NCBI GenBank assembly: GCA_037131245.1 | Contig: JBAXRK010000009.1 | Location: 12,388 to 76,387, forward strand | Direction: 5' to 3' | DNA: 64,000 nt | DNA from: Candidatus Omnitrophota bacterium | GTDB taxonomy: Bacteria; Omnitrophota; Gorgyraeia; Zapsychrales; Fredricksoniimonadaceae | Shown: one piece after another, positions 7,430 through 22,248 of the stretch | Layout of the letters: each line of letters opens with the position of its first letter | Position numbering within the stretch: the first letter of the stretch is position 1 | Position numbers and translations under genes: made by a program | The notes under the pieces: generated by a model | Seen by the model: only the letters and a program-made list of their open reading frames with translations | What the model was told of the DNA's origin: nothing | The model's database searches: none

Positions 7430-8026
7430 ATGAAAAAAGTTTATATAGCCGCCGTGATCGTAGCGGGTATGGCGTTGTCAGGCTGCGCGACGGAAGTGAT
7501 CCGTAAGGAGCCCAAAGAAGTGGTGGACCTTTCCGGCCGCTGGAATGATACCGACGCGCGGATGACGGCGGAAGAGATGGTCAAGAGCTGCCTGGAAACG
7601 GCCTGGTTACCGACATTTAATAAGGAAAAAGGCCGTGATCCGGTGGTGATCGTCGGAACGGTCAGCAATCGCAGTAATGAACATATTGACGCGATGGTTT
7701 TTGTCCAGGATCTCGAGCAGGCGCTGGTCAATGCCGGAAAAGTAAAATTTGTCGCCGCGTCTCCCGAGCGTGGGGAAGTACGCGCCGAGCGCGCCGACCA
7801 GCAGCAGAATGCCGCGGTTGAAACGCGGGCGGCCATGATCCAGGAAAAAGGCGCCGATTTTATGCTGCAGGGCACCATCAATTCTGTTAAAGACGAAATT
7901 AAGGGCGAGTACGCTATCCTTTTCCAGGTTAACCTGGAACTGGTCAATATGACCACGAACGAAAAAGTATGGATCGGCCAGAAAAAGATCAAGAAGCTGG
8001 TCAAGCGTCCGCAGTATTCCCTTTGA
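7430..8026 (+). CDS. LpoB/COG3417-like lipoprotein (penicillin-binding-protein activator family)
   Basis: The lipobox is MALSGC. The pattern VVIVGTVSNRSNEHIDAMVFVQDLEQALVNAGKVKFV ... ADFMLQGTI ... YAILFQVNLELVNMTTNEKVWIG matches the LpoB C-terminal domain as I recall it. Confidence 0.7.
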   Translation: MKKVYIAAVIVAGMALSGCATEVIRKEPKEVVDLSGRWNDTDARMTAEEMVKSCLETAWLPTFNKEKGRDPVVIVGTVSNRSNEHIDAMVFVQDLEQALVNAGKVKFVAASPERGEVRAERADQQQNAAVETRAAMIQEKGADFMLQGTINSVKDEIKGEYAILFQVNLELVNMTTNEKVWIGQKKIKKLVKRPQYSL

Positions 8027-9300
8027 ACCGTTGTTGGCTGATCATCCCTTCGTTGTTGTTCCTCTCCTCCTGCGCGGCCATGAGCGGCCCGAGGTTGCAG
8101 CCCGAGATCACCGGGCTTGTGGCCTCCGACCAGGTTAAGCTTGCCGTTGACAAGATCGAAGCTACCGAAGCGGATTACGGGCAGGGAAATTACCTTTTAT
8201 ATTATTTGGATCGCGGCCTGGTTGAGGCCTACGCCGGCCTACACGCGCAGAGCATCCAGAGTTTTGAGAAGGCCAAGCGGCGTTTTGAAGAGCTTTATAC
8301 CCAGTCGGTTTCAAAAGAAGCGGCCAGCTGGATCGGCAATGATTATGCGCTGCCGTATCGCGGGGCGGATTATGAGTATGTCTTTGTTAATGTTTTTCAG
8401 GCGTTGAATTATCTGGCTTCGGGTAATGTGAACGAAGCGTTGGTCGAGGCGCGTGATCTGGATTCCAAATACCAAGTGGTTGAGAAGCTGGCCGCTGGGG
8501 GTGGGAATCGCCGTTTTGAAGATAATGGTTTTGCCCGGATGTTCATGGGGTTTGTTAGCGAGGCGACAGGGCGGCCTGAGGACCGGGATAATGCCCGCAT
8601 CTTTTACCAACAGGCCGAGGCAGTTTATGCCCGGTATTACGGCGGTGGGTATGAGCCTCAGGTCCTTAAAGAGCGCCTGAATGCCGTGAGCGGGTGGAAC
8701 AGCGGCGACAACCGGGCGGTAGTTTATGTTCTTCAGCTGGCCGGTTTCGCGCCGGTGAAAGAGCAGTTATTTCTCCCGGTGCCGCTGGAAGATGGCGTTG
8801 TGGCGCAGGTGGCTTTTCCCAGGTTCGTGGCGCGGCCTTTTATGGCTCACCGGGGGATGGTCACAGCGGAAAATGCGGCCGGGGGCAGCGTGCGGGCGTC
8901 AACAGAGCTTGGGGTTAGTATCGCGGACCTGGCGGTGAAAGACCTGGAGTCGCGCAAGGCATTGGCACTTTCTAAAGCCGTCATCCGGCCCGCCTTGAAG
9001 TACATGGTTGAACATAAGCAGCAGGAAAATATTCAGAAGAAGTTCGGCCGGCCTGCCGGGCAGATCTTCGGGCTTATCAGCAGCCTTTATAATATTTATT
9101 CGGAGCGGGCGGACCTCAGGAGCTGGCAGTCCTTGCCGTCTGAGATCCGGGTGGCTCGCCTGGCCCTTGATCCGGGGAAATATCATATGCGTTTTGAGCA
9201 TTTGTCGGAAGACGGCGCCCTAGTGGGAACGGAAGAGCTGGGGGATATCAATTGTCTTTCGGGCCAGACTTATTTTCTGGTTAGCCGTGGACGCCGTTAA
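8023..9300 (+). CDS. Hypothetical large lipoprotein (helical/TPR-like N-half)
   Basis: The ORF track starts at 7969, inside the upstream gene. A TTG at 8023 gives a clean signal peptide with lipobox (LNRCWLIIPSLLFLSSC) and a 4-nt overlap with the lpoB-like stop. I cannot name a domain with confidence. Confidence 0.65.
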   Translation: MNRCWLIIPSLLFLSSCAAMSGPRLQPEITGLVASDQVKLAVDKIEATEADYGQGNYLLYYLDRGLVEAYAGLHAQSIQSFEKAKRRFEELYTQSVSKEAASWIGNDYALPYRGADYEYVFVNVFQALNYLASGNVNEALVEARDLDSKYQVVEKLAAGGGNRRFEDNGFARMFMGFVSEATGRPEDRDNARIFYQQAEAVYARYYGGGYEPQVLKERLNAVSGWNSGDNRAVVYVLQLAGFAPVKEQLFLPVPLEDGVVAQVAFPRFVARPFMAHRGMVTAENAAGGSVRASTELGVSIADLAVKDLESRKALALSKAVIRPALKYMVEHKQQENIQKKFGRPAGQIFGLISSLYNIYSERADLRSWQSLPSEIRVARLALDPGKYHMRFEHLSEDGALVGTEELGDINCLSGQTYFLVSRGRR

Positions 9301-9387
9301 TTTGAAGAAAATGCTTTTCCCGGCAGGGTCCGTTGGCTATAATCAAAGTTAAATTTGGTTGTTCCTTTTGTAATAAGTGAGGGGACT

Positions 9388-9609
9388 ATGCGGAAGTTAG
9401 GGACGATGGTGTTGATCTTAGTTGCTTTGGCTGGTTGCACGGGCACCCAGAAAGGGGCCACCATTGGCGGCCTTGCCGGGGCGGGTTTGGGTGCGATCAT
9501 CGGGTATCAGAGCGGGCATTTGGCTGAAGGCGCCTTGATCGGCGGCGCGGCCGGTGCGGCCGGCGGAGCCCTGACGGGCGACGCTATAGAAGATAAGAAG
9601 GATAAATAG
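9388..9609 (+). CDS. Small glycine-zipper lipoprotein
   Basis: The ATG at 9388 is preceded by gagggg; the ORF track start at 9355 is a TTG extension. The lipobox is LVALAGC, followed by the Gly-zipper GGLAGAGLGAIIGY...GGAAGAAGGALTG. Confidence 0.75.
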   Translation: MRKLGTMVLILVALAGCTGTQKGATIGGLAGAGLGAIIGYQSGHLAEGALIGGAAGAAGGALTGDAIEDKKDK

Positions 9610-9613
9610 ACCA

Positions 9614-10000
9614 GTGAGCATGAAGATCCTTATTGTTGATGATTCTTTGCTTGACCGTAAACTGCTGTCGAAGACCCTGATCAATTCAGGTGTCAAGAAT
9701 GAGATCTTGCAGGCGGATAACGGCGAGTCAGCGTTAGGTGTTATCGCCGAGCATCTCGACGAGATCTGCCTGATGTTCTGCGATTATCAGATGCCTAACA
9801 TGTCCGGGGTCGAGCTCATGGAAGGCCTGGTCAAGGTGCCGGCCACCTCCAAGATCCCGATCGTGATGGTCACGGCCTCCGCCACGGAAGACAGTAAGAA
9901 AGCAGCCTACGCGGTCAATCCGAACCTGGCCGGCTACGTGATCAAGCCTTACAAGCCTGATGAAGTCCTGGCGGTCATCAAACCGTATGTCCAATTCTAA
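9614..10000 (+). CDS. Stand-alone response-regulator receiver (CheY-like)
   Basis: The receiver residues are present: IVDDS (acidic pair), CDYQMPNMSG (phospho-Asp), VMVTAS (Thr) and VIKPY (Lys). There is no output domain. The start may be ATG 9620. Confidence 0.9.
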   Translation: MSMKILIVDDSLLDRKLLSKTLINSGVKNEILQADNGESALGVIAEHLDEICLMFCDYQMPNMSGVELMEGLVKVPATSKIPIVMVTASATEDSKKAAYAVNPNLAGYVIKPYKPDEVLAVIKPYVQF

Positions 10001-10586
10001 GTCCCCATTTGAGTTTGACGGCGAGAACAGGGAGCTTTATGACCTGTCGGTCCTCCTGGTGGCGGCAGTGCGCAAGGTGCTTAGCCAAAAGGGCGATATC
10101 CATCTTTCCCAAGAGCCGCGGATCTCCGAGAAAGAAACCATTCAGTTCGCCCACCGGATGCGCGTGGACGGCCTGGAGAAATTCAACGGCCGTACCCTGA
10201 TCGCGGCGCTCAATTTCTATATTGATAAAGAGCATATGGATCACGACAAAGCCCTTGGCGCCTTGATCGTGTATATCCCGGAGGATTATATCGCGCGTTT
10301 GATGTGGCTGCTGGAGTATGGCCGCATTGATGAGGACGATGAGGACGAGGTGCTTGACGCTTGCGGTACGGTGACCAATCTTATCGCGGGGTATTTTATC
10401 AAGGAGCTCAGCGGCCACGGTTATGTTCATCTGGAAATGGGGCATTTTACGACGTTTGTCAATTCGCCTCTTAATGGCATTGATTTTCATTCCCAGGAAA
10501 AGGTTAAACACGAGATGGAGATCTTCATTCGTGATGAAAAGCGCATGGTGCTGGAGCTCACGATGGGCCACGTGAAGAGGTACTAG
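9987..10586 (+). CDS. Hypothetical protein, possible CheC/CheX-like domain
   Basis: I prefer the ATG at 9987 (MSNSKSPFEF), which overlaps the upstream receiver gene by 14 nt. The C-half (GALIVYIPEDYIARLMWLL...DEVLDACGTVTNLIAGYFIKEL...EMEIFIRDEKRMVLELTM) resembles the CheX-family pattern. T replaces the catalytic E of the E-x-x-N motif. Confidence 0.45.
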   Translation: MSNSKSPFEFDGENRELYDLSVLLVAAVRKVLSQKGDIHLSQEPRISEKETIQFAHRMRVDGLEKFNGRTLIAALNFYIDKEHMDHDKALGALIVYIPEDYIARLMWLLEYGRIDEDDEDEVLDACGTVTNLIAGYFIKELSGHGYVHLEMGHFTTFVNSPLNGIDFHSQEKVKHEMEIFIRDEKRMVLELTMGHVKRY

Positions 10587-10587
10587 G

Positions 10588-10944
10588 ATGCGAAAAAAGA
10601 TCCTGATCGCCGATGATGACCCGACCTTGACCCGCCTGCTTGGCTCTTATCTGGGTGAGAACGGGTATGACACGGTGGTCGCTCATGACGGGGACGAGGC
10701 CTTGCGCAAGCTTGAGCAGGAGCTTCCCGACCTGATCATTCTCGACGTGGTGATGCCCAAGGTAAATGGGTACGCGTTCCTTTTTGCGATGCGGCAGATC
10801 GAAGGGGCCCGGACCACGCCGATCATTGTGTTGACCTGCAAACCGGAGCTGGCCGAGATCTTTTTGGCTGAGGGTGTGCAGGAGTATGTGATCAAGCCTT
10901 TTCCTCATCAGGAATTACTGCTAAAAGTCCGGAAGTATATTTGA
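10588..10944 (+). CDS. Stand-alone response-regulator receiver (CheY-like)
   Basis: The receiver residues are IADDD, LIILDVVMPKVNG, IIVLTCK and VIKPF. The gene starts 1 nt after the previous stop. Confidence 0.9.
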   Translation: MRKKILIADDDPTLTRLLGSYLGENGYDTVVAHDGDEALRKLEQELPDLIILDVVMPKVNGYAFLFAMRQIEGARTTPIIVLTCKPELAEIFLAEGVQEYVIKPFPHQELLLKVRKYI

Positions 10945-10973
10945 TACCGGGGTTAACAAAACGGAGCGTGCTT

Positions 10974-11606
10974 ATGATCATTTCCCGACAGATCCTTTCT
11001 CTTGCGTTGGTGGTGCTGGTGATCGCCGGTTTGAGCATTTATAAATTCGGCATTCAGAAAGCGTGGCATCCCGCCAAGATCAATATGTTCCAGCAGGGCC
11101 GGGTCAAGGGCGATCCAGCCGCGCCGGTCAAGATCGTGGAGTATACGGATTTTCAATGCCCGGCCTGCGCTGCCGCTAACACAGTGCTTGAGGACTTGTT
11201 CAAAAAGCATGAAGGCAAGATATCCCTGGAACATAAGCATTTCCCGTTGCCCCGGCATGCCCATTCCCTGCGGGCGTCGATCTTTGCCGAGTGTGCTGTT
11301 GAGCAAGGCAAGTTCTGGCCCATGCATGATGTGCTTTTTAAAAGCCAGAAGAGCTGGGAAGGGATGATCTCGGTGGATGCTTATTTTTCCGAGCTGGCGG
11401 TTTCGCTGGGCCTGGATGGGACACGCCTGGCCGCGTGCGTCAATAGTCCTGCTGCCGATGGCAAGGTAACCCGTGACAAGATCGCCGGCCAAACCCTGGA
11501 AGTCAACGCCACGCCAACATTCTTTATTAACGGCAAACGCGTGGTAGGCGGGAAATTCATGGCAGAGGAAGTGGAAAAGCTGCTGGCGGTGCCCGGAGGG
11601 AAGTGA
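10974..11606 (+). CDS. DsbA-family thiol:disulfide oxidoreductase, membrane-anchored
   Basis: The ATG at 10974 is preceded by a ggag RBS. An N-terminal TM/signal anchor is followed by a thioredoxin-fold CxxC (YTDFQCPACAAA). Confidence 0.85.
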   Translation: MIISRQILSLALVVLVIAGLSIYKFGIQKAWHPAKINMFQQGRVKGDPAAPVKIVEYTDFQCPACAAANTVLEDLFKKHEGKISLEHKHFPLPRHAHSLRASIFAECAVEQGKFWPMHDVLFKSQKSWEGMISVDAYFSELAVSLGLDGTRLAACVNSPAADGKVTRDKIAGQTLEVNATPTFFINGKRVVGGKFMAEEVEKLLAVPGGK

Positions 11607-11607
11607 C

Positions 11608-12051
11608 ATGTTCGTTGTGATCAGGCTGCTGCTCGGGGCCCTTTTTATTTTTTCCGGCGGAGAGAAGCTCCTGAAGCCCATGGAGGAATTTCTTTACGTG
11701 ATCGACGGGTATCAGGCGTTGCCTCAATGGGCGGAGCCGGCAGTCGCGCTGTTGTTCCCGTGGGTTGAGTTCTTTGCCGGGCTCTTTATCCTGTTGGGCT
11801 TCTGGCTGAGGCAGGCTTTGGCGGTTCTGCTGCTTTTGTCGGCCGCACTGGCCCTGATCGTCGGACAAGCCATCCTGCGTCATTTGCCGCTGGATAATTG
11901 CGGTTGTTTCGGCGAACTTATTCATCTTCCTTTGCACGGCGTGATCTTGATCGACCTGTCGGTCATCGCGTTGTCGGCACTATGCCTGGCTAACAGCACA
12001 AAGGCGTCGCGATACTCGCTCGATGCGTTCTATGCCCGGCCTAAAGCTTAA
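11608..12051 (+). CDS. MauE/DoxX-family redox-associated membrane protein
   Basis: It has four hydrophobic helices and the CGCFG motif (LPLDNCGCFGELI). It starts 1 nt after the dsbA stop. Confidence 0.7.
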   Translation: MFVVIRLLLGALFIFSGGEKLLKPMEEFLYVIDGYQALPQWAEPAVALLFPWVEFFAGLFILLGFWLRQALAVLLLLSAALALIVGQAILRHLPLDNCGCFGELIHLPLHGVILIDLSVIALSALCLANSTKASRYSLDAFYARPKA

Positions 12052-13516
12052 ACTTTTCCTGATCTTCCTGGGGTTGTGCGTGATGGGCAGGCCTTCGTTC
12101 GCTGATAATGATCTTAAAGAGGCTGGCCTGGCCGGCAGCTGGTATCCAGGGGCCTCAGGTGAGCTTTCCCGAATGGTCGATGGATATTTAAGCGCTGCTC
12201 CCGCGCCGGTGTCCGGCAAAACGGCGGGAGTGATCATTTCCCCTCATGCCGGGTATGTTTTTTCAGCGCCGGTTGCGGCGTACGGTTTTAAAGCGGCCAC
12301 TTCCCGGAACATTGCCACGGTCATTATTCTGGCGCCCAGTCATCATTTTTCTTTTGCCGGTATTTCGGTCTGGCCCCGGGGGGCTTTTGAAACGCCGCTC
12401 GGCCGGATCGAGGTTGACGCGGACCTGGCCGGCAAGCTTTTGGCCGCCGATAAGCGTTTTATTTTCCGGCGGGATGTATTTGACGGGGCGCGAGACCAGC
12501 CCGAGAATTCGGTGGAAACGCAATTACCGATGATCCAGCGGGTTTTTCCGAAAGCAAAGATCGTTCCTGTTATCGTGGGGTTTCCTCCGGATTTTGATGT
12601 TCTGCGCGCTTTGGCTGGCGCGCTGGCCGGTATCGTCGGCTCCCGGGAAGATGTTTTGGTCGATGTCAGCGTGGATCAGTCGCATTTTCATACCGAGGCG
12701 CAGGCGCATGAGATCGACGCGCGCGGCCTGAAAGCCATCGAGGCCATGGACGAACAGGCGTTGTGGCAGGGGCATCGTGACGGGTTAATGGAAGTGGATG
12801 GGTTCCATGTTGTAACGGCAGCCATGCTTTACGCGAAAGCACAGGGGTATAGCGCCGCGAAAGTGTTGAAGTACGCGACGTCGGCGGACGCCACCGGTGA
12901 TAAGGGTCGGGTCGTGGGGTATGCGTCGGTCGCCTTCTATAAAGATTCGGGAAGCGTGATGCCGGCGGGACTTAATGATGCCCAGCGGGCTCGTTTGCTG
13001 GGTGTGGCCCGTGCTACGCTGGAGTCTTTTGTCCGCACCGGTAAAGCGGCCGATGTTGCTGAAAATGATTCTCGCTTGAGCGCGGAGGAAGGCGCTTTTG
13101 TAACGTTGCATGCCCGCGGCCAGTTGCGTGGATGCATCGGGAACATTATTGGACAAGGCCCGCTGTATCTGACGGTGCGGGATATGGCCGTGGCCGCGGC
13201 ATCGCAAGACCCCCGTTTTTCGGCGGTCAGTGCCGGTGAGCTTAAGGATATTGCTATTGAGATCTCGGTCCTGTCGAAGCCGCGGGTCATTGCGAATACG
13301 GATGAGATAGTAATGGGGACGCATGGGGTTATTGTGTCGCGCGGTTTTTCCAACCGCGGGGTTTTCCTTCCGCAGGTGGCTACCGAGACCGGCTGGACCA
13401 AAGAGCGCTTCATGGCGGAGCTTTGTTCCCAGAAAGCCGGCCTTCCGCCAAATTGCTGGAAAGAGCCAGGGACAAGGATCGAAATATTCACCGCGGAAGT
13501 TTTCGGGGAGAAGTAA
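12023..13516 (+). CDS. Fusion of Memo-like (AmmeMemoRadiSam system protein B) and AMMECR1 (protein A) domains
   Basis: The N-half carries AGSWYPG...GVIISPHAGYVFSAPVAAYGF (Memo family). The C-half carries GAFVTLHARGQLRGCIGNI (AMMECR1 signature). The start is ambiguous. ATG 12023 or 12032 gives a Sec-type signal (LKLFLIFLGLCVMGRPSFA|DN), whereas ATG 12083 gives a cytoplasmic protein. Confidence 0.85.
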   Translation: MRSMPGLKLKLFLIFLGLCVMGRPSFADNDLKEAGLAGSWYPGASGELSRMVDGYLSAAPAPVSGKTAGVIISPHAGYVFSAPVAAYGFKAATSRNIATVIILAPSHHFSFAGISVWPRGAFETPLGRIEVDADLAGKLLAADKRFIFRRDVFDGARDQPENSVETQLPMIQRVFPKAKIVPVIVGFPPDFDVLRALAGALAGIVGSREDVLVDVSVDQSHFHTEAQAHEIDARGLKAIEAMDEQALWQGHRDGLMEVDGFHVVTAAMLYAKAQGYSAAKVLKYATSADATGDKGRVVGYASVAFYKDSGSVMPAGLNDAQRARLLGVARATLESFVRTGKAADVAENDSRLSAEEGAFVTLHARGQLRGCIGNIIGQGPLYLTVRDMAVAAASQDPRFSAVSAGELKDIAIEISVLSKPRVIANTDEIVMGTHGVIVSRGFSNRGVFLPQVATETGWTKERFMAELCSQKAGLPPNCWKEPGTRIEIFTAEVFGEK

Positions 13517-13534
13517 TAGAAAGAGGACATTGTT

Positions 13535-13768
13535 ATGGGAAAAAAGAATAATAGTAAACCGAAGAAAGAAGATGATGCCAAGAAGCCTTTTTTATCTGAT
13601 CGCCAGCGCAAGATCTTCGTTATCGTGATCCTGGCGATGTTCCTTCTGGTCCCGATCGTGGATAATTTCCGTTGCAAGGCCGAATGCCTCAAGAAGGTTA
13701 AGACGCCGTATCCCGAGATCGCCTGCCAGTATCAATGCCCCTGGCCCTGGGCCAGGATCGGCAAATGA
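13535..13768 (+). CDS. Small basic membrane protein with two CxxxC motifs
   Basis: An RBS agagga lies upstream. A Lys-rich N-terminus is followed by one TM (IFVIVILAMFLLVPIV) and the tail CKAEC...CQYQC. The stop overlaps the SEDS gene start (ATGA). Confidence 0.55.
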   Translation: MGKKNNSKPKKEDDAKKPFLSDRQRKIFVIVILAMFLLVPIVDNFRCKAECLKKVKTPYPEIACQYQCPWPWARIGK

Positions 13769-14871
13769 ATAACGCTGAAGGCCGCACGATATGGGTTTTC
13801 ACCGGCCTGATCATTGCGGTGGGCCTGGCCGCGCTTTATAGCGCGACCTACGAAAATGTGCGCGTGACCCGGCAGGTCTTCTACGATCAGCTGATCTGGT
13901 CGTTGATAGCGTTGGTTGTTATGTTCGTCCTTAGCCGCGTGAATTATCGTTTTTTTTACGATAGCGCCTATATCATTTATGGCTTGAGCGTGCTTCTTCT
14001 TCTGGCGGTTTTGTTCTCCGGCCGGTCGGCGCTGGGGGCAACGCGCTGGTTCAACCTGGGCTTCTTTTCTTTTCAACCTTCCGAGTTGTCAAAACTGGCG
14101 GTTGTGGTGATGCTGGCCCGTTATTTTAGTTCCAGCAATGAGCGTTTTTCGTTCAATGTCCGGGGGGCCATGAGCGCTGCCTGCCAGGACTTGCTGTTCC
14201 CGTTCATTCTTGTCCTGATCAGTTTCGTGTTGATCTTCAAGCAGCCTGACCTGGGGACGGCTTTACTGGTGATGGGGATCTTTATCATTATGGTTTATGC
14301 TTCGGGTGAGGAGATGAAGCCATTTGGTATTTTTTTAGGCGCTTGTACGGCTTTGATCCCGGTGGGTTGGATCTTTTTAATGAAGGACTATCAGCGGGAC
14401 CGGGTGCTGGTCTTTATGAATCCTAACGCCGATCCGTTGGGTGCCGGGTATACCATTATTCAATCGAGGATCGCGGTCGGTTCCGGGCAAATGTTCGGCA
14501 AGGGCTGGCTGGCCGGGACGCAGAACCAGTTGAATTTTCTTCCCGAACGGCACACGGATTTTATTTTTTCCGTTATCGGCGAAGAGTGGGGGTTCCTGGG
14601 GGCGATCTTCCTGATCGTTTGTTATTTCATGCTGATCTGGACCGGGCTGCAGATCGCGGAACGGGTGAAGGATCGTTTTGGGCATATGATGGCTGTCGGG
14701 ATCGTCAGCATCCTGGCTTTGCAGGTTGTTATTAACATCAGCATGACCATCGGTCTAAGCCCGGTGGTCGGGATCACACTGCCGCTGATCAGCTACGGCC
14801 GTACCTCGTTCATGATCTTTGCCGTGCTTATCGGGATCATGCTCAATTTAAGTTCGCGTCGTTCCGCTTGA
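13765..14871 (+). CDS. SEDS-family peptidoglycan glycosyltransferase (FtsW/RodA/SpoVE)
   Basis: I prefer the start at ATG 13765 (MNNAEGRTIWVF...). It is polytopic, with the family motifs FQPSELSKLAVV, NQLNFLPERHTDFIFSVIGEEWGF and ITLPLISYG. Confidence 0.9.
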   Translation: MNNAEGRTIWVFTGLIIAVGLAALYSATYENVRVTRQVFYDQLIWSLIALVVMFVLSRVNYRFFYDSAYIIYGLSVLLLLAVLFSGRSALGATRWFNLGFFSFQPSELSKLAVVVMLARYFSSSNERFSFNVRGAMSAACQDLLFPFILVLISFVLIFKQPDLGTALLVMGIFIIMVYASGEEMKPFGIFLGACTALIPVGWIFLMKDYQRDRVLVFMNPNADPLGAGYTIIQSRIAVGSGQMFGKGWLAGTQNQLNFLPERHTDFIFSVIGEEWGFLGAIFLIVCYFMLIWTGLQIAERVKDRFGHMMAVGIVSILALQVVINISMTIGLSPVVGITLPLISYGRTSFMIFAVLIGIMLNLSSRRSA

Positions 14872-14897
14872 GCTGGCCTTCAAAAACGACGGTTGAA

Positions 14898-14926
14898 TTG
14901 ACATATAATACTAATTTAAGTAAAGT
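14898..14926 (+). promoter_or_regulatory. Candidate sigma70 promoter for the pilus motor operon
   Basis: TTGACA (14898-14903), a 17-nt spacer, then TAAAGT (14921-14926), in an AT-rich gap. A TATAAT directly abuts the -35, so other registers are possible. Confidence 0.35.
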
Positions 14927-14967
14927 ATGGCGTTGGTAATCAGTTAAATGAGTTTTGGCGGGATTAC

Positions 14968-15417
14968 ATGCGCTACGAACGGGCTTCTAATAAGCATCTG
15001 GGCGAGTTACTGGTGGAACGCGGGCTGATCGCTCGCGACCATCTTGATAAGGCCCTGGAGTATCAGCAGACCCATCCGGACGTTCTTTTCGGCGAGGCTC
15101 TCATCAAGCTGGGCTTCGCGTCCGAGGAGGATATCGCCCAGGCGCTGACCTGCCAGTACGGGTTTCCCTACCTTCCTTTATCCAATTATGAGATCGACGT
15201 TGAAGTCGCCAGGTCCGTCCCGGGGAATGTGTGCGAGCAGTTTTGCCTGATCCCTATCGACAAGATCGGTAAAAGTTTGACCCTGGCGATGTCGAACCCC
15301 TTGAACATGAAAGCGGTCGACAGTATCGAGCTACTGACCGGCTGCACGGTGCAGGCTTTTGTCAGCACGACTACGGATATTCGCAACGCTATTAAAAGAT
15401 ACTATAGCGGGGATTAA
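14968..15417 (+). CDS. Stand-alone T2SSE_N / MshEN-type domain protein
   Basis: This 149-aa protein is entirely the N-terminal domain type found on GspE/PilB/MshE ATPases: HLGELLVERGLIARDHLDKALEYQ, LFGEALIKLGFASEEDIAQALTCQ, then CLIPIDKIGKSLTLAMSNPLN. It has no ATPase core. Confidence 0.8.
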   Translation: MRYERASNKHLGELLVERGLIARDHLDKALEYQQTHPDVLFGEALIKLGFASEEDIAQALTCQYGFPYLPLSNYEIDVEVARSVPGNVCEQFCLIPIDKIGKSLTLAMSNPLNMKAVDSIELLTGCTVQAFVSTTTDIRNAIKRYYSGD

Positions 15418-17141
15418 TGCCGACATTTAAAGACCGGATCAAGGCCATTCTGCTGCGTGACGGGATCCTGAGTTCGCAGGACCTTGGCCGTGCGGTCGAA
15501 GAGCAGGAAAAGACCGGAGGGGAGCTCAGCAAGATCCTGGCGCGGATGGGCCTGATCGATGAGGAGCAGCTGGCTTTTCTTTTAAGCGAAGGCCTGCATC
15601 TTCCTGTGATCAATATTGCACGCCTCAAGATCGACCCGTCCGTCGTGAATGTTTTGCCCGTCGATATTCTTAAGAAATACCGCATCCTTCCTGTCTCACG
15701 CATCGGCGACAATTTATCCCTGGCCATGGCCGATCCCCTTAACATCTTTGCGATCGATAATGTCAAAGCCCTGACGGGGCTCACGATCACGCCGATCATC
15801 GGGCGCCCCAAGGATATCGCGGACGCGATCGAGCAGTATACGGCGCCAAAATCCGATGAGTCTTTTAATCAGATCCTGCGCGACATCAAGGATGCCGAGG
15901 AGGTGGAGCTGGTCAATGAGGGGCCGGACAGGCTTGATGCCAAAGAGGTCGAGAATATCACTCAGGAGGCGCCGATCATCCGGCTGGCGAATACCATCGT
16001 CCGCCAGGCGGTCGCCGCCAAGGCCTCCGACGTTTTTATTGAACCGCTGGAGAAAAGCCTGCGCATCAGGTACCGCATCGATGGCGTGCTGCGCGAGATC
16101 GACCGCATGTCCAAAGCGCTGCATTTCCCGGTCGTGTCCCGGATCAAGGTGGTCTCGAACCTGGATATTTCCGAGCACCGCATGCCGCAGGACGGGCGGT
16201 TTAAGTCGTCGCTCGAGGGTGGCAAGGAAGTGGATTTTCGTGTTTCCATTTTGCCGACGGTCTATGGGGAAAAGGTGGTGCTGCGGGTCCTCGACAAGAA
16301 CCAGGGCCGTGTGGATATTGAGAAACTGGGGATGGAGCCGGGCCCGCTACTTCGCCTGAAGGAGGCCTGTAGCCGCCCTCACGGGATGATCCTGATCTGC
16401 GGTCCGACGGGCAGCGGGAAAACGACCACGCTTTATTCTATTTTGCGGCATATCGATTCTCCGGGAAAAAATATCGTGACCGTTGAGGATCCGGTGGAAT
16501 ATCAGATGAAGGGCCTAAATCAGGTGAATATCCGTTATGAGGTCGGCCTGACATTCAGCGCGACACTGCGTTCGATCCTGCGCCAGGATCCGGATGTCAT
16601 CATGATCGGCGAGATCCGCGATTCGGAAACACTCGATATCGGGATCAAGGCGGCATTGACCGGGCATTTGGTGGTCAGTTCCCTGCATACGACGACGGCG
16701 TCCGGTTCGGTGGTCCGCATGGTCAATATGGGCATTGAGCCTTTCCTGATTTGTTCCGCGGTCAATTGCCTGGTGGCGCAACGCTTGTTGCGCCGTATTT
16801 GCCCGAGCTGCAAGGAAGCCGTGACCATATCGGAAACCCTTTATAACAAGCTGAATATCGGCCGGATCATTCCAGGTAAAGACCTTCTTTTTTATCGTGG
16901 TAAAGGGTGTGTGCAATGCTTGAAGTCCGGCTATTCGGGCCGAGTGGGTATTCACGAGGTGTTGCCGCTATCACCGGCGATCAAGAAGTTAATTCTGGCG
17001 CGGGCCGGCGAGATCCAGATCAAATCGGCGGGCCGCGAAGAGGGCATGCGCACGATGCGCGAGGACGCGCTGGCCAAGGCGGCACAGGGATTGACATCAC
17101 TTGAGGAGGTCGTGCGCGTGACCGCGCAGGACGAGAAATGA
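15417..17141 (+). CDS. pilB: Type IV pilus / T2SS assembly ATPase (PilB/GspE family), copy 1
   Basis: It has a Walker A (GPTGSGKTTTLYS), Asp/His boxes (VMIGEIRDSET, LVVSSLHT), a tetracysteine CPSC...CVQC and an N-terminal T2SSE_N domain. It joins the upstream gene by a TAATG overlap. Confidence 0.93.
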   Translation: MPTFKDRIKAILLRDGILSSQDLGRAVEEQEKTGGELSKILARMGLIDEEQLAFLLSEGLHLPVINIARLKIDPSVVNVLPVDILKKYRILPVSRIGDNLSLAMADPLNIFAIDNVKALTGLTITPIIGRPKDIADAIEQYTAPKSDESFNQILRDIKDAEEVELVNEGPDRLDAKEVENITQEAPIIRLANTIVRQAVAAKASDVFIEPLEKSLRIRYRIDGVLREIDRMSKALHFPVVSRIKVVSNLDISEHRMPQDGRFKSSLEGGKEVDFRVSILPTVYGEKVVLRVLDKNQGRVDIEKLGMEPGPLLRLKEACSRPHGMILICGPTGSGKTTTLYSILRHIDSPGKNIVTVEDPVEYQMKGLNQVNIRYEVGLTFSATLRSILRQDPDVIMIGEIRDSETLDIGIKAALTGHLVVSSLHTTTASGSVVRMVNMGIEPFLICSAVNCLVAQRLLRRICPSCKEAVTISETLYNKLNIGRIIPGKDLLFYRGKGCVQCLKSGYSGRVGIHEVLPLSPAIKKLILARAGEIQIKSAGREEGMRTMREDALAKAAQGLTSLEEVVRVTAQDEK

Positions 17142-17144
17142 TCC

Positions 17145-18845
17145 ATGCCTAATGTCCGTGAACGCATCATTAACGCTCTTGTGCAACTGCCCGGGATCGA
17201 CCGGGGGGCGGTGGACGCCGCGCTTGACTACCAGCGGGAGAAGAATATCTCTTTTGCCGAGGCGGTGGTTGCCAAGGGGCTTATTCCTGAAAAAGACTTT
17301 GTTTTGCTGCTTGTCCGGGAGCTCAAGATCCCTTCAGTTGACTTGCGGCGTTTCAAACTTGACCCGCGCCTGAAGGATGAAGTTCCGGAGCGGCTCGCAC
17401 GGCAGTACAACCTCATCCCGATCGCGACCCTCGGGACGAGCCTGACCGTGGCGCTGGGTGATCCGCTGAATGTTTTTGCCCTTGATGATCTTCGGGATAT
17501 GACCGGCAAGAAGATCGATGTCGTGATGGCGACCCCTTCCCAGATAAAAGATGCGGTCGACCGTTTTTATGGCGGGGCGGACCAGGGGTCGGTTGCCGAG
17601 ATCAGCAAGAACATCGATGTCGGCGATTTTGAGATCATTGCTGATACCAAGGAAGAAGACGGCGCGGACGTCGATGGCAGTGAACAGGCACCGGTCATCC
17701 GCATGGTTAACCTGGTTTTGAAGGAGGCCTTGCGTCAGCGGGCGTCCGATGTCCATATGGAACCCACGGAAGGCCATATGCGCGTCCGTTACCGCGTGGA
17801 CGGGGTCCTGGTCGATGTCCTTGAGATCCCCCGGGAGAGCCAGGGCGCGGTGCTGGTGCGTATCAAGATCATGTCACGGATTGATATCACGGTCACGCAG
17901 GTGCCGCAGGACGGGCGTTTTAAACTGAGGATGTCAGGCAAGGAAGTGGATTTCCGGGTTTCGATCCTGCCGACCAGCCACGGGGCCAAGGTTGTTATGC
18001 GGCTGTTGGATAAGGCTAATCTGTCGGTGGGCCTGGGGCAGCTGGGTTTGTCGGACCATTCGCTCGCGCTGGTCGAGGAAGGTATTCTTAAGCCTTTTGG
18101 GATGATCCTGGTCACCGGACCGACCGGAAGCGGGAAGTCGACGACGCTGTATTCGATCATCAACAAACTTAATAGTGTGGACAAGAATATTATCACGGTT
18201 GAAGACCCGGTTGAATATCTGGTGGACGGCTTGACCCAGATCGAGGTGCGCGCGGATATAGGTCTTACGTTCGCCGCCGCCTTGCGTTCAATCCTTCGTC
18301 AGAGCCCGGATATCGTGATGGTGGGCGAGATCCGCGATAATGAAACGGCGGATATCGCCATTAAAGCGTCATTGACGGGGCAGCTGGTTTTCTCCACGCT
18401 GCACACGAATGACGCTGCCGGCGCGTTGACCCGTTTGGTTGATATGGATGTGGAGCCTTTTTTGGTGGCCTCGAGCCTGGTCCTGGTGTGTGCCCAGCGC
18501 CTGGCGCGTAAGATCTGCCCGCATTGCAAGTATGAGGTCGAGGTACCGATCGAAGCGCTCAAACGGTTTGAAGGAGCCCTCGATCCCAAGACCCGCTTTT
18601 ACGCCGGGCGCGGTTGCGATCACTGCCGTCATACGGGCTATCGCGGCCGCTTCGCGGTCACCGAGATCCTGGTGATGGACGATCCGATCCGGGAGATGCT
18701 GCTGCAGGGCAAGTCGTCAGACGATATCAAGGATTATGCCCGCCGGCAGAAAACGCTCCGGGTCTTGTGGGATGACGCGGTCGAGCGCCTGGCGCAGGGA
18801 CAGACGACGATCGAGGAAGTGTTGCGTATTGTTTCAGATGAGTGA
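17145..18845 (+). CDS. pilB: Type IV pilus / T2SS assembly ATPase (PilB/GspE family), copy 2
   Basis: It has GPTGSGKSTTLYS, VMVGEIRDNET, LVFSTLHT and CPHC...CDHC. It is a paralogue of copy 1, and by eye roughly half or more of the core residues are identical. Confidence 0.93.
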   Translation: MPNVRERIINALVQLPGIDRGAVDAALDYQREKNISFAEAVVAKGLIPEKDFVLLLVRELKIPSVDLRRFKLDPRLKDEVPERLARQYNLIPIATLGTSLTVALGDPLNVFALDDLRDMTGKKIDVVMATPSQIKDAVDRFYGGADQGSVAEISKNIDVGDFEIIADTKEEDGADVDGSEQAPVIRMVNLVLKEALRQRASDVHMEPTEGHMRVRYRVDGVLVDVLEIPRESQGAVLVRIKIMSRIDITVTQVPQDGRFKLRMSGKEVDFRVSILPTSHGAKVVMRLLDKANLSVGLGQLGLSDHSLALVEEGILKPFGMILVTGPTGSGKSTTLYSIINKLNSVDKNIITVEDPVEYLVDGLTQIEVRADIGLTFAAALRSILRQSPDIVMVGEIRDNETADIAIKASLTGQLVFSTLHTNDAAGALTRLVDMDVEPFLVASSLVLVCAQRLARKICPHCKYEVEVPIEALKRFEGALDPKTRFYAGRGCDHCRHTGYRGRFAVTEILVMDDPIREMLLQGKSSDDIKDYARRQKTLRVLWDDAVERLAQGQTTIEEVLRIVSDE

Positions 18846-18921
18846 AAACGGATTTTTAGCTTCCGCCGCGGGGGATCGCGGTTATAATAAAGACGGGTGA
18901 GCGGGAAGTGGGGGGGCTGTT

Positions 18922-19377
18922 ATGACAAAATGCTGTCTGGACCGTAAATTGATCGGGGAGATCCTTGTCGAGCGTGGTTTGATCTCGCAGGTTGATCTTG
19001 ATAGCGCGCTCAGCCATCAGAAATCCACGCCTGGCAGTTTCTTGGGTGAAATTCTCATTCGCCTGGGGGTGTTGACCGAGATCGACATTGTGACCGCCCT
19101 GGTGCTTCAGTGCAATCTGCCCTATATCGCGGTCAGCAAGCATCTGATCGAGCCTGAAGTGGCGCGCCTGATCCCGGCCGTCATGGCCCGCCGGGAAAGA
19201 GTGATCCCGCTTGACCGTATCGGGAACGTTCTAAGCATTGTTGTGCCCGGCCCGTTGCGGGAATCCCTGCGCGAGGAACTTGAACGGGTCTCCGGATGCA
19301 AGATCGCGATGTTCATCACCACGCCGACCGAGATCGACGGCGCTTTGGACCGGCTTTATCCGGTGAAAAATCCTTAA
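18922..19377 (+). CDS. Stand-alone T2SSE_N / MshEN-type domain protein, second copy
   Basis: This 151-aa protein carries LIGEILVERGLISQVDLDSALSHQ, FLGEILIRLGVLTEIDIVTALVLQ and VIPLDRIGNVLSIVVPGPL. An RBS ggggggg lies upstream. Confidence 0.8.
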   Translation: MTKCCLDRKLIGEILVERGLISQVDLDSALSHQKSTPGSFLGEILIRLGVLTEIDIVTALVLQCNLPYIAVSKHLIEPEVARLIPAVMARRERVIPLDRIGNVLSIVVPGPLRESLREELERVSGCKIAMFITTPTEIDGALDRLYPVKNP

Positions 19378-19388
19378 GGATAATTTTT

Positions 19389-20600
19389 ATGGCGACATTC
19401 CGTTATTCCGCGAAAGACTTCGACGCCCATACGTTCACCGGCAAGATCCAGGCGGCCGATCAGGCAGCCGTTATCGACGAGCTGCGCAAGCGCAAGCTGA
19501 TCATCGTCAGCATTGAGGAAGAGAGGGCATCATCCTTAATGCCGGCTTCTTCCGGCAAAACCGCGCCCATCAAAAGTGAAGATGTTATTCTTTTCTCCCG
19601 TCAGATGGCGACAATGGTCGACGCGGGTATCCCGATCCTGCAGACGGTCGACGCGTTGCAGGAACAGATGGTGAATCCTTCTTTTAAGAGGGTCCTCATT
19701 ACGGTCCGTGACGATATCCGTCTCGGCAGCAGCCTTTCCGCCGCTTTTGCCAAGCATTCCAGGGTTTTCGACGGCCTGTTTATTAATATGATCAGGGTCG
19801 GCGAGACCGGCGGTGTTTTGACGACGGTCCTTGACCGCCTTTCATCGTATATGGAGAAGTCCGAGCGCTTGCGCCGCAAGGTCAGCGGGGCGCTGGTTTA
19901 TCCCATGGTCATTGTGTCGATGGCGATGATCGTTACCATCGTTCTGCTGGTCAAGGTCGTGCCGACCTTCTCCTCGATCTATGCTTCGTTCGGCCGCAAG
20001 CTGCCGGCGATGACGCAGATCCTTCTTGATGTGAGCAATGGCTTGAAGGATAATTTTTTGGCGATCATCCTGATCGGCGGGGCCATGGTGGGCGCGGTGA
20101 TGGCTTATCAGCGCACCGAAAAAGGCGCGTATCAGATCGACGGGCTTAAATTGAAGTTGCCGGTTTTTGGTGACCTGCTTAAGAAAGTATCCGTGAGCCG
20201 CTTTTGCCGGACCCTCGCGGTGCTTATTCAGAGCGGGGTCCCTATTCTGGAAGGGCTTGATATTGTGCGCAAGACCATCGGTAACCGGGTCCTTGAAAAG
20301 GTCATTGCCGAGGTCATCGACAGCGTGCGGGAGGGCGAAAGCATTTCGGAACCGCTTACCCGGAGCAAAGTTTTTCCGACCATGGTCACCAAGATGATCT
20401 CGGTTGGTGAACAGTCGGGGCAGCTGGACAAGATGCTGGTTAAAGTTGCCGATTTCTTTGATGACCAGGTTGACGCGGCGGTGGAAACGCTAACCAGCCT
20501 TATTGAGCCGTTCATTATCGGTTTTCTGGGGATCGTGATCGGGTTCATCGTGATCGCGCTTTTCATGCCGATCATCAGCATTACGACAATGATCAACTAA
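19389..20600 (+). CDS. pilC: Type IV pilus platform protein PilC (GspF family)
   Basis: I prefer the ATG at 19389 (MATFRYSAKD...); the ORF track extension from 19296 overlaps the upstream gene. It has two GspF repeats and 3 TM segments (FSRQMATMVDAGIPILQ, FCRTLAVLIQSGVPILE). Confidence 0.92.
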   Translation: MATFRYSAKDFDAHTFTGKIQAADQAAVIDELRKRKLIIVSIEEERASSLMPASSGKTAPIKSEDVILFSRQMATMVDAGIPILQTVDALQEQMVNPSFKRVLITVRDDIRLGSSLSAAFAKHSRVFDGLFINMIRVGETGGVLTTVLDRLSSYMEKSERLRRKVSGALVYPMVIVSMAMIVTIVLLVKVVPTFSSIYASFGRKLPAMTQILLDVSNGLKDNFLAIILIGGAMVGAVMAYQRTEKGAYQIDGLKLKLPVFGDLLKKVSVSRFCRTLAVLIQSGVPILEGLDIVRKTIGNRVLEKVIAEVIDSVREGESISEPLTRSKVFPTMVTKMISVGEQSGQLDKMLVKVADFFDDQVDAAVETLTSLIEPFIIGFLGIVIGFIVIALFMPIISITTMIN

Positions 20601-20612
20601 ACGGAGATCTTG

Positions 20613-21659
20613 ATGGTGCGTTCATGGCAGTGGTTGATGGTGGCGGTCCTTCTGTTGGCCGGGGTAGCGCGGCCCCTGTTTGCCGATTCTCTGGCAGAAG
20701 TGTCCAGTGCCCAGGATAAGCTGGACTATACGCTTAATACACTTAAAGAAAGCGTGGCCCGGCTTAGCGACGAAAATAAAAAGCTTTCGGCCGGCAATGA
20801 GCAACTTAAGTTGAAATTGGCGCCGATGAATGATCGGCTCAATCAGGAACAGTCCAGGGAAGCTAAGCTGGTTGCCCAGCGTGACGCGCTGGATGCCGAT
20901 TATCGTAAGAGCCTGGCGGCGCGTGCCGCGTTGCAGGGACTGTTCGACCAAGGAGCTGCCGATCTAGCGGGCTTCAACGCTTCTCGCTTGGCGGCGGAAG
21001 ATGCGCTGAAGGCCCGGGATGTGGAAAATGCCGCTCTGGCTGCCAGGGCTGAGGCGTTGACACGGGAGTTGGAGGATATCCGTACCGGTCTGGTACCCGG
21101 TGAGGATCATACGGCTGAATTGGAAGCGCTGCGCGTGGCCCAGCAGTCGGCCCAGAAAGATCTTGAGATGTTCACCGCTCAGCTTGATCGTTTGCGTGCC
21201 GAGTGGAAGGAATTGGCGGTTTTTATTAACGCGGGCCCTGGTCAGGTGGATGTGCTTAAACAGGAACAGTCTACGCTTCAGGCGGATATTGTGCGCCGCA
21301 CGCAGGAGGTTGAGGATTTACGCCAGAAGGCGGCATCAGCCGTTAAAGAAGCGGATGATGTTTCTGCCAGGTTCTCGGCCGAGGCCCTGGCGTTGACGGA
21401 ACGGGATGTTCAGTTGCTGGAAGCAAAAGTACTCGCGGCCGAGCAGGAAGCGGCAGAGGCTGAAAAAACGGCACGCAGTGGTAAGGTGTCGCCGGCTCAG
21501 GATGCCAAGCTAAAAAAGGATGAGACCCGCTTCAAGGACTTGATGCAGCGCAACAAGGACCTGGTCATGGGCTTGAAGAATTTGCAGCGTTCCATGGTTA
21601 GTATGGACAAAAAGAAGTCGGCCCTGGAAAAAGAGCTGGAGCAGAACCGCTCCTATTGA
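20613..21659 (+). CDS. Secreted coiled-coil protein of unknown function inside the pilus operon
   Basis: GGAG lies 6 nt upstream of ATG 20613. A signal peptide (WLMVAVLLLAGVARPLFA|DS) is followed by about 320 aa of A/E/L/K/R-rich heptad-like sequence. Confidence 0.75.
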   Translation: MVRSWQWLMVAVLLLAGVARPLFADSLAEVSSAQDKLDYTLNTLKESVARLSDENKKLSAGNEQLKLKLAPMNDRLNQEQSREAKLVAQRDALDADYRKSLAARAALQGLFDQGAADLAGFNASRLAAEDALKARDVENAALAARAEALTRELEDIRTGLVPGEDHTAELEALRVAQQSAQKDLEMFTAQLDRLRAEWKELAVFINAGPGQVDVLKQEQSTLQADIVRRTQEVEDLRQKAASAVKEADDVSARFSAEALALTERDVQLLEAKVLAAEQEAAEAEKTARSGKVSPAQDAKLKKDETRFKDLMQRNKDLVMGLKNLQRSMVSMDKKKSALEKELEQNRSY

Positions 21660-21662
21660 TCC

Positions 21663-21692
21663 TTGGACAAATGGCCTGCGGTATGGTATGCT
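21663..21692 (+). promoter_or_regulatory. Candidate sigma70 promoter (extended -10) for the pilin gene
   Basis: TTGGAC (21663-21668), an 18-nt spacer, then TGgTATGCT (TG at 21684-21685, hexamer 21687-21692). This would leave a 5' leader of about 155 nt. Confidence 0.4.
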
Positions 21693-21855
21693 TTAAGCAG
21701 GATGAAACGTAGGAACGGGGAAGGAAAGGAGGCGGTAAGCGTCTTAACTTAACCGGGTGGTGTCGAAGGCGAGAACAGGTGAAACGTCATTATACTTACC
21801 TTTCGTAGTTCTCTCCCGATGGGCATCACCGCACAAACAACATCATGGAGGGTTT

Positions 21856-22248
21856 ATGTCTAACAAAAAAGGTTTTACGCTCGTTGAGATCATGATCGTG
21901 GTGGCTATTATCGCGTTGCTGGCTGCTATCGCTATTCCGAACCTGTTGAGAGCCAAGATCGCGGCGAACGATGCCCTGGCGAAGGGTACCCTCCGCACGC
22001 TGTCGACCGCGTCTGAGACGTTTGCGACCGCGAATAACGGTGTTTATCCCGGAGATCAGGCTTCGTTGACGGCGCCCACTTCTGGTCCGGCGTATGTGAA
22101 CAAGAATTACTGCGATACTGTTAATGCCGGGTTCTCGGTTACTTGCGCTTTCGGCACTGGATCGTACACGTTCACGGCTACACCCACGGCGGTCGGAACA
22201 TCGGGTACGACCACGTTCTTAATGAAAACGGGCGGTATCCTGGAATAA
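21856..22248 (+). CDS. Type IV pilin (PilA-like major pilin)
   Basis: I prefer the ATG at 21856, which has GGAGG 5 nt upstream. It has a short leader and prepilin cleavage/methylation motif (MSNKKG|FTLVEIMIVVAIIALLAAIAIPN) and a C-terminal Cys pair (NYCDTVNAGFSVTC). Confidence 0.93.
   Translation: MSNKKGFTLVEIMIVVAIIALLAAIAIPNLLRAKIAANDALAKGTLRTLSTASETFATANNGVYPGDQASLTAPTSGPAYVNKNYCDTVNAGFSVTCAFGTGSYTFTATPTAVGTSGTTTFLMKTGGILE

Follow-up and report, generated by a model that had tools for sequence, protein, structure and literature searches.

A DsbA-like protein and MauE encoded ahead of a predicted exported Memo::AMMECR1 fusion in Omnitrophota

Introduction

Memo and AMMECR1 are conserved from archaea to humans, in which MEMO1 acts in cell motility and metal homeostasis and AMMECR1 is involved in AMME syndrome; we know of no established biochemical function for either of them. 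Here we examine a cluster of three genes lying on the + strand at positions 10974-13516 of a window of 64,000 nucleotides (nt) from a Candidatus Omnitrophota bacterium (GenBank assembly GCA_037131245.1, contig JBAXRK010000009.1). These genes code, in this order, for a DsbA-like protein, a MauE-family membrane protein and a Memo::AMMECR1 fusion. The arrangement combines two known kinds of system, the AmmeMemoRadiSam system and the MauE oxidative-folding pathway, and an association of DsbA and MauE with an exported Memo::AMMECR1 protein is described in no paper found in the literature searched.

PMC6393860 places AMMECR1 among the uncharacterised archaeal families of top priority, and PMC7159879 cites Burroughs et al. 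2019 (JBC) for Memo-AMMECR1 systems. The AmmeMemoRadiSam system comprises proteins A (TIGR04335) and B (TIGR04336) and a co-encoded radical S-adenosylmethionine (SAM) enzyme, AmrS (TIGR04337). At the locus under study A and B are both present, fused, and score above the curated cut-offs. Unlike the described system, however, the fusion carries a predicted signal peptide and has DsbA and MauE as neighbours (joined in most relatives by a conserved membrane protein, c15, and by an HTTM::DCC protein), no co-encoded AmrS is found in the window or in the neighbourhoods of its clade, and the Cys of the Memo metal site is an Asp in the window.

MauE proteins from Caldithrix and Desulfatibacillum were recently reported to restore motility and PhoA activity in E. 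coli ΔdsbB (Gonzalez et al., bioRxiv 10.64898/2026.03.05.709764, March 2026). According to this preprint, the CXC motif of MauE is needed for function and is followed by a conserved Phe-Gly, a Lys of helix 1 and a Glu of helix 2 line a predicted quinone site, and 8.2% of MauE entries are fusions to thioredoxin-fold domains. The same authors present MauE as a generalist replacement for DsbB and cite an earlier study which had proposed that MauE is a reductase. The locus in the window appears similar in its four-helix MauE, CGC-F-G loop, Lys and Glu residues and thioredoxin-fold partner, and re-oxidation of DsbA via quinone would be expected; it differs in that its MauE subfamily is nearly always tied to an operon with one exported enzyme, whereas the described proteins are generalists. 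As in the DsbA-DsbB and DsbA-VKOR systems, a periplasmic CxxC oxidase would be recycled by a four-helix quinone-linked membrane protein, but MauE comes from another membrane family (DoxX-like) and uses CXC instead of CXXC. The MauD and MauE proteins of the mau cluster also consist of a thioredoxin-like CxxC protein and a MauE encoded beside the exported enzyme that they are thought to mature; in the window, by contrast, the partner is of the DsbA type, Memo::AMMECR1 would be the client, and no methylamine dehydrogenase genes lie nearby. A classical mau cluster was ruled out, the mauA/mauB dehydrogenase genes being absent and the neighbours being response regulators, a CheX-like protein, Memo::AMMECR1 and RodA. 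No dehydrogenase was found among the recurrent neighbour clusters of relatives' loci.

Organization and conservation of the cluster

The coordinates of the three genes (Table 1) bear out the tight coupling claimed in a first-pass annotation of this DNA: mauE starts 1 nt past the dsbA stop codon, and the fusion gene overlaps the mauE stop (12049-12051) by 20 nt if it starts at ATG 12032 or by 29 nt if it starts at ATG 12023. The first of these starts is used in a deposited 494-amino-acid (aa) protein from a Candidatus Omnitrophota metagenome-assembled genome (MAG) which is identical to the fusion (P0001). Judging by the sequence and its conservation, translation of the fusion is predicted to be coupled to that of mauE. 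A GGAG lies 7 nt 5' of the ATG of the dsbA-like gene, for which a longer TTG start at 10941 is possible. A promoter and terminator scan of 9200-15200 gave counts at or below the shuffled expectation and was uninformative.

A genome scan using one genome per species retrieved 80 loci with relatives of the fusion, mostly from Omnitrophota, which a distance tree separates into two clades. In the clade of the window, 20 loci have the genes for DsbA and MauE immediately before the fusion, two others end inside mauE and one has DsbA only; the pair precedes the fusion in 24 of the 30 loci with readable upstream sequence, window included. A reverse scan of metagenome loci, seeded with an alignment of MauE proteins, recovered DsbA upstream of MauE in 69/69 loci with enough sequence, and the fusion within about 250 nt after MauE in 61 of 67 loci, farther downstream in three and absent in three. 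The adjacency is thus conserved among relatives. The first conserved Memo motif lies a median of 86 nt past the mauE stop (interquartile range 80-107, 89 loci), and the dsbA-mauE gap has a median of 6 nt. Because some 86 nt correspond to the length of a signal peptide only, the start of the fusion must abut or overlap the mauE stop nearly everywhere.

Both flanks change around this triad. At least five kinds of genes are found upstream (coding for a response regulator, a CheX-like protein, phosphoenolpyruvate carboxykinase, a 4-α-glucanotransferase-like protein, and others) and at least five kinds of arrangements downstream (a 77-aa protein with RodA, c15 with HTTM::DCC, and others), while the triad is kept at 38-63% identity of the fusion and 39-54% identity of MauE. 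Conservation at about 40-60% identity with changing flanks is as expected of an operon under selection. The response regulator gene ending 29 nt 5' of dsbA is a variable flank outside the conserved triad, since the upstream neighbour varies between relatives.

Fusions 63-65% identical to that of the window were also found in MAGs of Deltaproteobacteria/Smithellaceae (L001, L002, L004). They are nested in the Omnitrophota subclade and come without DsbA/MauE, and this nesting together with their solitary state suggests horizontal transfer of the fusion alone. In L002/L162 the fusion gene stands beside a divergently transcribed PBP1A gene.

AmrS and the sister clade

In 29 loci of the sister clade, the gene directly before the fusion codes for AmrS of 360-370 aa (TIGR04337, 374.5 bits against a cut-off of 220), which in one case is joined to the fusion; in 26 loci the gene directly after the fusion codes for a DsbD_2-family membrane protein (PF13386), and CutA1 is encoded upstream in several. 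DsbA and MauE were not found in the sister-clade loci; conversely, AmrS, DsbD_2 and CutA1 were not found in the loci of the window's clade, a radical-SAM relative in L026 excepted. The 64-kb window holds no AmrS (tblastn at E<=1e-3; no open reading frame with CX3CX2C), nor was one detected in the flanks of ±4-10 kb at more than 100 related loci of its clade, apart from that distant radical-SAM relative in L026, which shows 24% identity, lies 5.8 kb off on the opposite strand and does not match TIGR04337. The first-pass annotation had described the radical-SAM partner as replaced in the neighbourhood by a thiol-oxidoreductase pair; this wording is accurate, because no AmrS lies near the fusions of the window's clade whereas in the sister clade AmrS is encoded immediately before the fusion.

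The three AmmeMemoRadiSam components also occur as one protein of 849 aa, AmrS::Memo::AMMECR1 (L076:8888-11437), and two 651-aa proteins combine a radical-SAM domain with Memo (P0434, P0505). In E. coli, cutA (cutA1/cutA2) adjoins dsbD. The order found in the sister clade, with a DsbD_2-family gene following the fusion and CutA1 upstream in several loci, resembles this arrangement, but the latter is absent from the window and concerns the reducing, not the oxidising, branch.

Predicted export and redox features

The first-pass annotation had also raised a possible extracytoplasmic module. All three products are predicted to be extracytoplasmic from the signal peptide of the fusion, the N-in anchor of the DsbA-like protein and the charge distribution of MauE. 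What had been overlooked is the signal peptide itself, which makes a link between the fusion and a periplasmic DsbA/MauE pair physically plausible: the three proteins would meet at the outer face of the cytoplasmic membrane.

The predicted Sec-type signal peptide of the fusion, MPGLKLKLFLIFLGLCVMGRPSFA, has 24 residues with a basic start and a 12-residue hydrophobic core (residues 8-19), and its predicted cleavage site lies before DNDLK, with S at -3 and A at -1 (SFA, acidic mature end). The family models start past it, TIGR04336 aligning from residue 33 of the 497-aa form and MEMO1 residue 5 aligning to residue 29. Signal-like N-termini, some with a lipoprotein-type Cys, were seen by eye in nearly all full-length homologues among the 120 closest. 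They were called in 79/118 fusion homologues, and in at least 112 of the 150 best representatives of 50% identity clusters; about 16 of these 150 have a short N-terminus of cytoplasmic type. We consequently predict that the fusion is exported.

The DsbA-like protein was correctly recognized earlier as a membrane-anchored DsbA with CPAC. Its matches to Thioredoxin_4 and DSBA and the CPAC active site (residues 62-65, nt 11157-11168) assign it to the DsbA-type fold with CxxC. Hydropathy reveals a single N-terminal hydrophobic helix (residues 7-23) preceded by an Arg, the remainder being hydrophilic, and the protein is therefore predicted to sit outside the cytoplasm on an N-in anchor. This anchor is kept in 20 relatives, and the motif DF(Q/E/G)CPAC in all the DsbA-like homologues of relatives except that of L022 (DFRCYPC). 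In the latter locus (L022:6535-7161) the DsbA-like gene thus codes for CYPC instead of CPAC, and mauE is absent between it and the fusion.

The assignment of the second gene to a MauE/DoxX-type membrane protein with CGCFG also holds, with matches to Pfam MauE (PF07291; E=5.3e-20, 72.5 bits against a cut-off of 27) and DoxX (E=3.3e-7). Hydropathy and charge indicate four hydrophobic helices, with acidic loops 1 and 3 and a basic loop 2 and C-terminus. Following this positive-inside pattern, the loop between helices 3 and 4, which holds C98-G-C100-F-G (nt 11899-11913), is placed outside and would face the periplasm. In the MauE alignment A2, C98, G99, C100, G102 and E54 are invariant and K20 is present in at least 90% of the sequences; CGCFG is invariant across 17 MauE relatives apart from a change of F to Y in two. 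Judged by the description in the preprint, K20 and E54 appear to lie where the tested proteins (B8FLW7, H1XRV2) have the helix 1 Lys and helix 2 Glu. By these features the MauE of the window is probably a member of the already known MauE oxidative-folding pathway. The DsbB-independent route of DsbA re-oxidation proposed in the first-pass annotation would hence be of a known kind, as the MauE proteins of the preprint, with their CXC-F-G, replace DsbB in E. coli and the window MauE has the same sequence features; such a route can no longer be called undescribed.

The fusion matches the Pfam families Memo (E=7.8e-54) and AMMECR1 (E=1.2e-52) as well as the NCBIfam models TIGR04336 (223.8 bits, cut-off 26) and TIGR04335 (171.2 bits, cut-off 99). 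For all three genes, matches of this strength could not arise by chance. In its Memo domain His72, His104, Asp215 and His218 are conserved, H72 and H104 being invariant. Human MEMO1, the metal ligands of which are H49, H81 and C244 (PMC11081632), was compared by profile alignment. The column of its Cys244 corresponds to Asp256 of the 494-aa fusion (nt 12797-12799) and holds a Cys in 72 of 80 relatives and another residue in eight; it is not a Cys in the seven closest relatives of the window either, the Smithellaceae copies included. Asp256 and the two invariant His may form a 2-His-1-carboxylate set like that of classical LigB dioxygenases. Comparison of the AMMECR1 domain with archaeal PH0010, MM0484 and ST0229 shows that the Cys of LRGCIG and the Cys before KAGL are common to all three, and that the Cys of PP(D/N)CW is present in PH0010 and ST0229 and absent in MM0484.

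Possible role of the DsbA/MauE pair

Our preferred reading, to which we give about even chances, is that the three genes form an extracytoplasmic module in which DsbA/MauE is the dedicated redox partner of the exported Memo::AMMECR1 protein. It draws on the near-obligate linkage between this MauE subfamily and the fusion and on the complementary presence of AmrS and DsbD_2 in the sister clade. Two further thiol-redox associations support it: an HTTM::DCC1-like thiol-disulfide oxidoreductase (PF05090 and PF04134) is encoded downstream of the fusion in 36 of 54 relatives, and an independent report on Pyrobaculum/Thermoproteus (Thermoproteales) notes that AMMECR1 shares an operon with the gene of a thioredoxin-fold protein. 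If the MauE of the window works like the tested ones, its CGC loop would pass electrons to the membrane quinone, thereby re-oxidising the DsbA-like protein without DsbB. The pair may have co-evolved with the exported fusion in the clade of the window, where it would take the genomic place held in the sister clade by AmrS and by DsbD_2, a thiol or metal transporter. There it would oxidise or poise thiols, either those of the invariant AMMECR1 Cys (LRGCIG, LCxxKAGL) or those of the enzyme's envelope substrate, and could be likened to MauD/MauE serving methylamine dehydrogenase.

Several observations weigh against such a dedicated partnership. Six relatives with readable upstream sequence (L002, L004, L008, L013, L026, L030) have the fusion without the pair, and L022 is without MauE. 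Nearly all of the loci come from one phylum, so that shared ancestry inflates the above counts, which do not represent independent events. The mature fusion has three Cys only, at positions 368, 465 and 475, two of them found in all three archaeal cytoplasmic AMMECR1 proteins compared and the third in two, and no export-specific Cys pair or column of the fusion tracks with the DsbA/MauE context. In addition, the DsbD_2 protein of the sister clade would move electrons the opposite way, and the pair, which lies among envelope genes and next to those of the type IV pilus, could be the sole, general Dsb system of the organism. The idea of the fusion as an obvious multi-disulfide client was rejected: with three Cys that are family-wide and no Cys pair linked to the context, it is unlike a typical multi-disulfide substrate.

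Somewhat less probable, yet to be taken seriously, is the possibility that the trio is dispersed, with an amrS gene, probably with a signal peptide, elsewhere in the genome; DsbA/MauE would then add to the radical SAM enzyme and not replace it. The absence of amrS applies to the 64 kb of the window, on a contig of about 186 kb, and to ±4-10 kb around the related loci, and the fusion keeps every residue that is invariant across both clades, both of which are compatible with a distant AmrS. This possibility must nevertheless be set against the contrast between the more than 100 clade loci devoid of AmrS (bar the distant L026 relative) and the 29 sister loci in which amrS is adjacent.

We regard it as possible but rather unlikely that DsbA/MauE is a housekeeping neighbour devoted to general oxidative folding, the fusion merely lying downstream in an inherited envelope block (LpoB ... 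RodA, type IV pilus). Such a role would agree with the generalist MauE of the preprint, with the lack of an export-specific Cys pair in the fusion and with the six relatives having the fusion alone; the genes around the triad are indeed envelope genes, and neither the window nor any of the loci showed a second DsbA, MauE, DsbB or VKOR. On the other hand, the triad persists at the identities given above despite repeated changes of its flanks, the conserved spacing makes start and stop codons overlap or abut from locus to locus, the MauE subfamily almost never occurs without the fusion, and in the sister clade another membrane thiol-redox protein accompanies the fusion.

A reducing or protecting role appears improbable. 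According to this hypothesis, the thioredoxin-fold protein and MauE would keep the catalytic Cys of AMMECR1 reduced in the oxidising periplasm, or would isomerise them, as a functional equivalent of the DsbD_2 protein of the sister clade. The invariant Cys of LRGCIG would be vulnerable outside the cytoplasm, a CcdA-like DsbD_2 gene directly follows the fusion in the 26 sister loci, and MauE was once proposed to be a reductase in the study cited by the preprint. However, complementation of ΔdsbB by MauE indicates an oxidase function, MauE has no known route to a cytoplasmic reductant, and the fold of the partner is of the DsbA type (Thioredoxin_4/DSBA), not of the TlpA/ResA type. Finally, a mis-called start, with a cytoplasmic fusion beginning at a GTG/ATG near 12080-12083 and thus without a physical link to the pair, can be set aside as highly improbable: although no clear Shine-Dalgarno sequence precedes 12023 or 12032 and some database gene calls of homologues begin internally, a signal-like peptide can be read from the upstream frame of essentially all relatives, divergent as they are, and the mauE stop keeps a conserved distance of 80-107 nt from the Memo motif.

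The dedicated partnership that we prefer could be extended further, in a way that we find doubtful. In the clade of the window, the fusion may have traded a radical-SAM activator for quinone-linked thiol oxidation by DsbA/MauE, supplemented by HTTM::DCC in most relatives. The chemistry of AMMECR1/Memo would then be driven by a redox step based on Cys or quinone, for which a radical SAM enzyme and a Dsb/quinone system would be alternative sources. It would act on an envelope substrate, for which the neighbouring genes suggest type IV pilins or cell-wall precursors as possibilities. Other cases are known in which a radical-SAM enzyme has an oxidant-dependent isoenzyme.

Exported clusters with AmrS

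Export signals are not restricted to the fusion. The AmrS proteins encoded next to exported fusions carry N-terminal export signals in L036:8893-9996, L061:1459-2538 and 27 other sister-clade loci as well as in L165:2813-3943 and L167:5001-6122, and a Sec-like N-terminal segment lies ahead of the family model in 103 of 119 homologues of the Omnitrophota AmrS. In another lineage, AmrS starts with MISRREFLK, a textbook twin-arginine (Tat) motif, and RRxF[LI] occurs near the N-terminus in 90/120 of its closest homologues, which come from Vulcanimicrobiota, Poribacteria, Chloroflexota, Zixibacteria and Aminicenantes. Beside this Tat-type AmrS the fusion is a lipoprotein, and the upstream DUF362 protein bears a Tat motif too. 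The AmrS proteins found beside exported fusions are thus predicted to leave the cytoplasm. Since such signals occur in several phyla, the predicted export of the window's fusion is no oddity but fits a widespread pattern. The literature searched yielded no paper on exported radical SAM enzymes, and a radical SAM enzyme with a Tat or Sec signal is a puzzle, as S-adenosylmethionine and a reductant would be needed outside the cytoplasm.

The Vulcanimicrobiota-like MAGs (L167:3940-9133, L168, L169, L165) share another conserved exported cluster, which encodes in this order a DUF362 protein (Tat), AmrS (Tat), a lipoprotein Memo::AMMECR1 and a B12-binding radical SAM enzyme. This type of cluster, the lone Smithellaceae fusion by PBP1A and further loci without a recognisable partner rule out that thiol-redox neighbours are general to exported systems.

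Neighbouring genes

Between the fusion and rodA, and overlapping the annotated rodA start, the window encodes a 77-aa membrane protein, a candidate Dsb substrate, in which a basic N-terminus and a single helix are followed by an extracytoplasmic tail bearing two CX3C motifs (RCKAEC...ACQYQCPWPW). It has no Pfam or NCBIfam match and is found only in the subclade of the window, where its four Cys are invariant in L003, L005, L006, L007, L082 and L130 (consensus RCKAxC...ACxYxCPWPW). It takes the place held in most relatives by c15 and HTTM::DCC, both of which are missing from the window. In L012:11449-13357 and 35 other loci (e.g., L087, L093, L098, L100), the fusion is followed by the conserved membrane protein, which displays the motifs KFLFPPAGWIMF, DPHxI and TRxxxYDNI, then by the HTTM::DCC1-like protein, the HTTM domain of which is vitamin-K-carboxylase-like, and by RodA. 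The rodA gene comes after the cluster in most relatives.

Table 1. Positions in the window of the genes and domains of the cluster and of adjacent genes
Feature	Position	Strand	Evidence
Response regulator receiver protein	10588..10944	+	Pfam Response_reg
DsbA-like thiol:disulfide oxidoreductase, 210 aa	10974..11606	+	Pfam Thioredoxin_4 E=7.5e-31, DSBA E=9.8e-17
MauE-family four-helix membrane protein, 147 aa	11608..12051	+	Pfam MauE 72.5 bits; hydropathy
Memo::AMMECR1 fusion, predicted exported	12032..13516 (alternative ATG 12023)	+	Pfam, NCBIfam; identical to P0001
Predicted Sec signal peptide MPGLKLKLFLIFLGLCVMGRPSFA of the fusion	12032..12103	+	Only hydrophobic stretch, outside the family models
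Memo (LigB-superfamily) domain	12122..12931	+	Pfam Memo, residues 34-303 of the 497-aa form
AMMECR1 domain with LRGCIGN and LCSQKAGLPPNCW motifs	13004..13504	+	Pfam AMMECR1, residues 328-494 of the 497-aa form
77-aa small membrane protein	13535..13768	+	Four invariant Cys in relatives; hydropathy
RodA (SEDS peptidoglycan polymerase)	13735..14871	+	TIGR02210 399.8 bits; synteny

Upstream of the cluster, the region 7430-10944 of the window is tightly packed on one strand and codes for an LpoB-like lipoprotein, a 443-aa protein, a Gly-rich 84-aa open reading frame, two single-domain response regulators and a weak CheX-like protein; neither the 443-aa protein nor the 84-aa open reading frame matches any family. 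Downstream, type IV pilus genes at 14968-22248 encode PilC, two PilB-like ATPases and pilins whose N-terminus is of the GFTLVEIM type. Both clades have type IV pilus genes beside the fusion cluster (in the sister clade, e.g., L036:5198-8653), and in about 19 loci of the sister clade amrS is immediately preceded by genes for pilin-like proteins. This adjacency may reflect phylum-level synteny or may be a hint that pilins are clients. Pilins need disulfides and may be general Dsb clients.

Conclusions

If the DsbA/MauE pair does serve the fusion, the newly described MauE pathway would be extended from a generalist to an apparently dedicated role. A large exported branch of Memo/AMMECR1 proteins would narrow the search for their function, as the radical-SAM partner would be replaced in one clade by a disulfide/quinone module amenable to assay, and it would point to thiol-redox chemistry and an envelope substrate for these proteins. 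A secreted fusion encoded after a disulfide-forming pair, in the position that the radical SAM enzyme holds in sister lineages, would thus provide a testable clue to what the two domains do.

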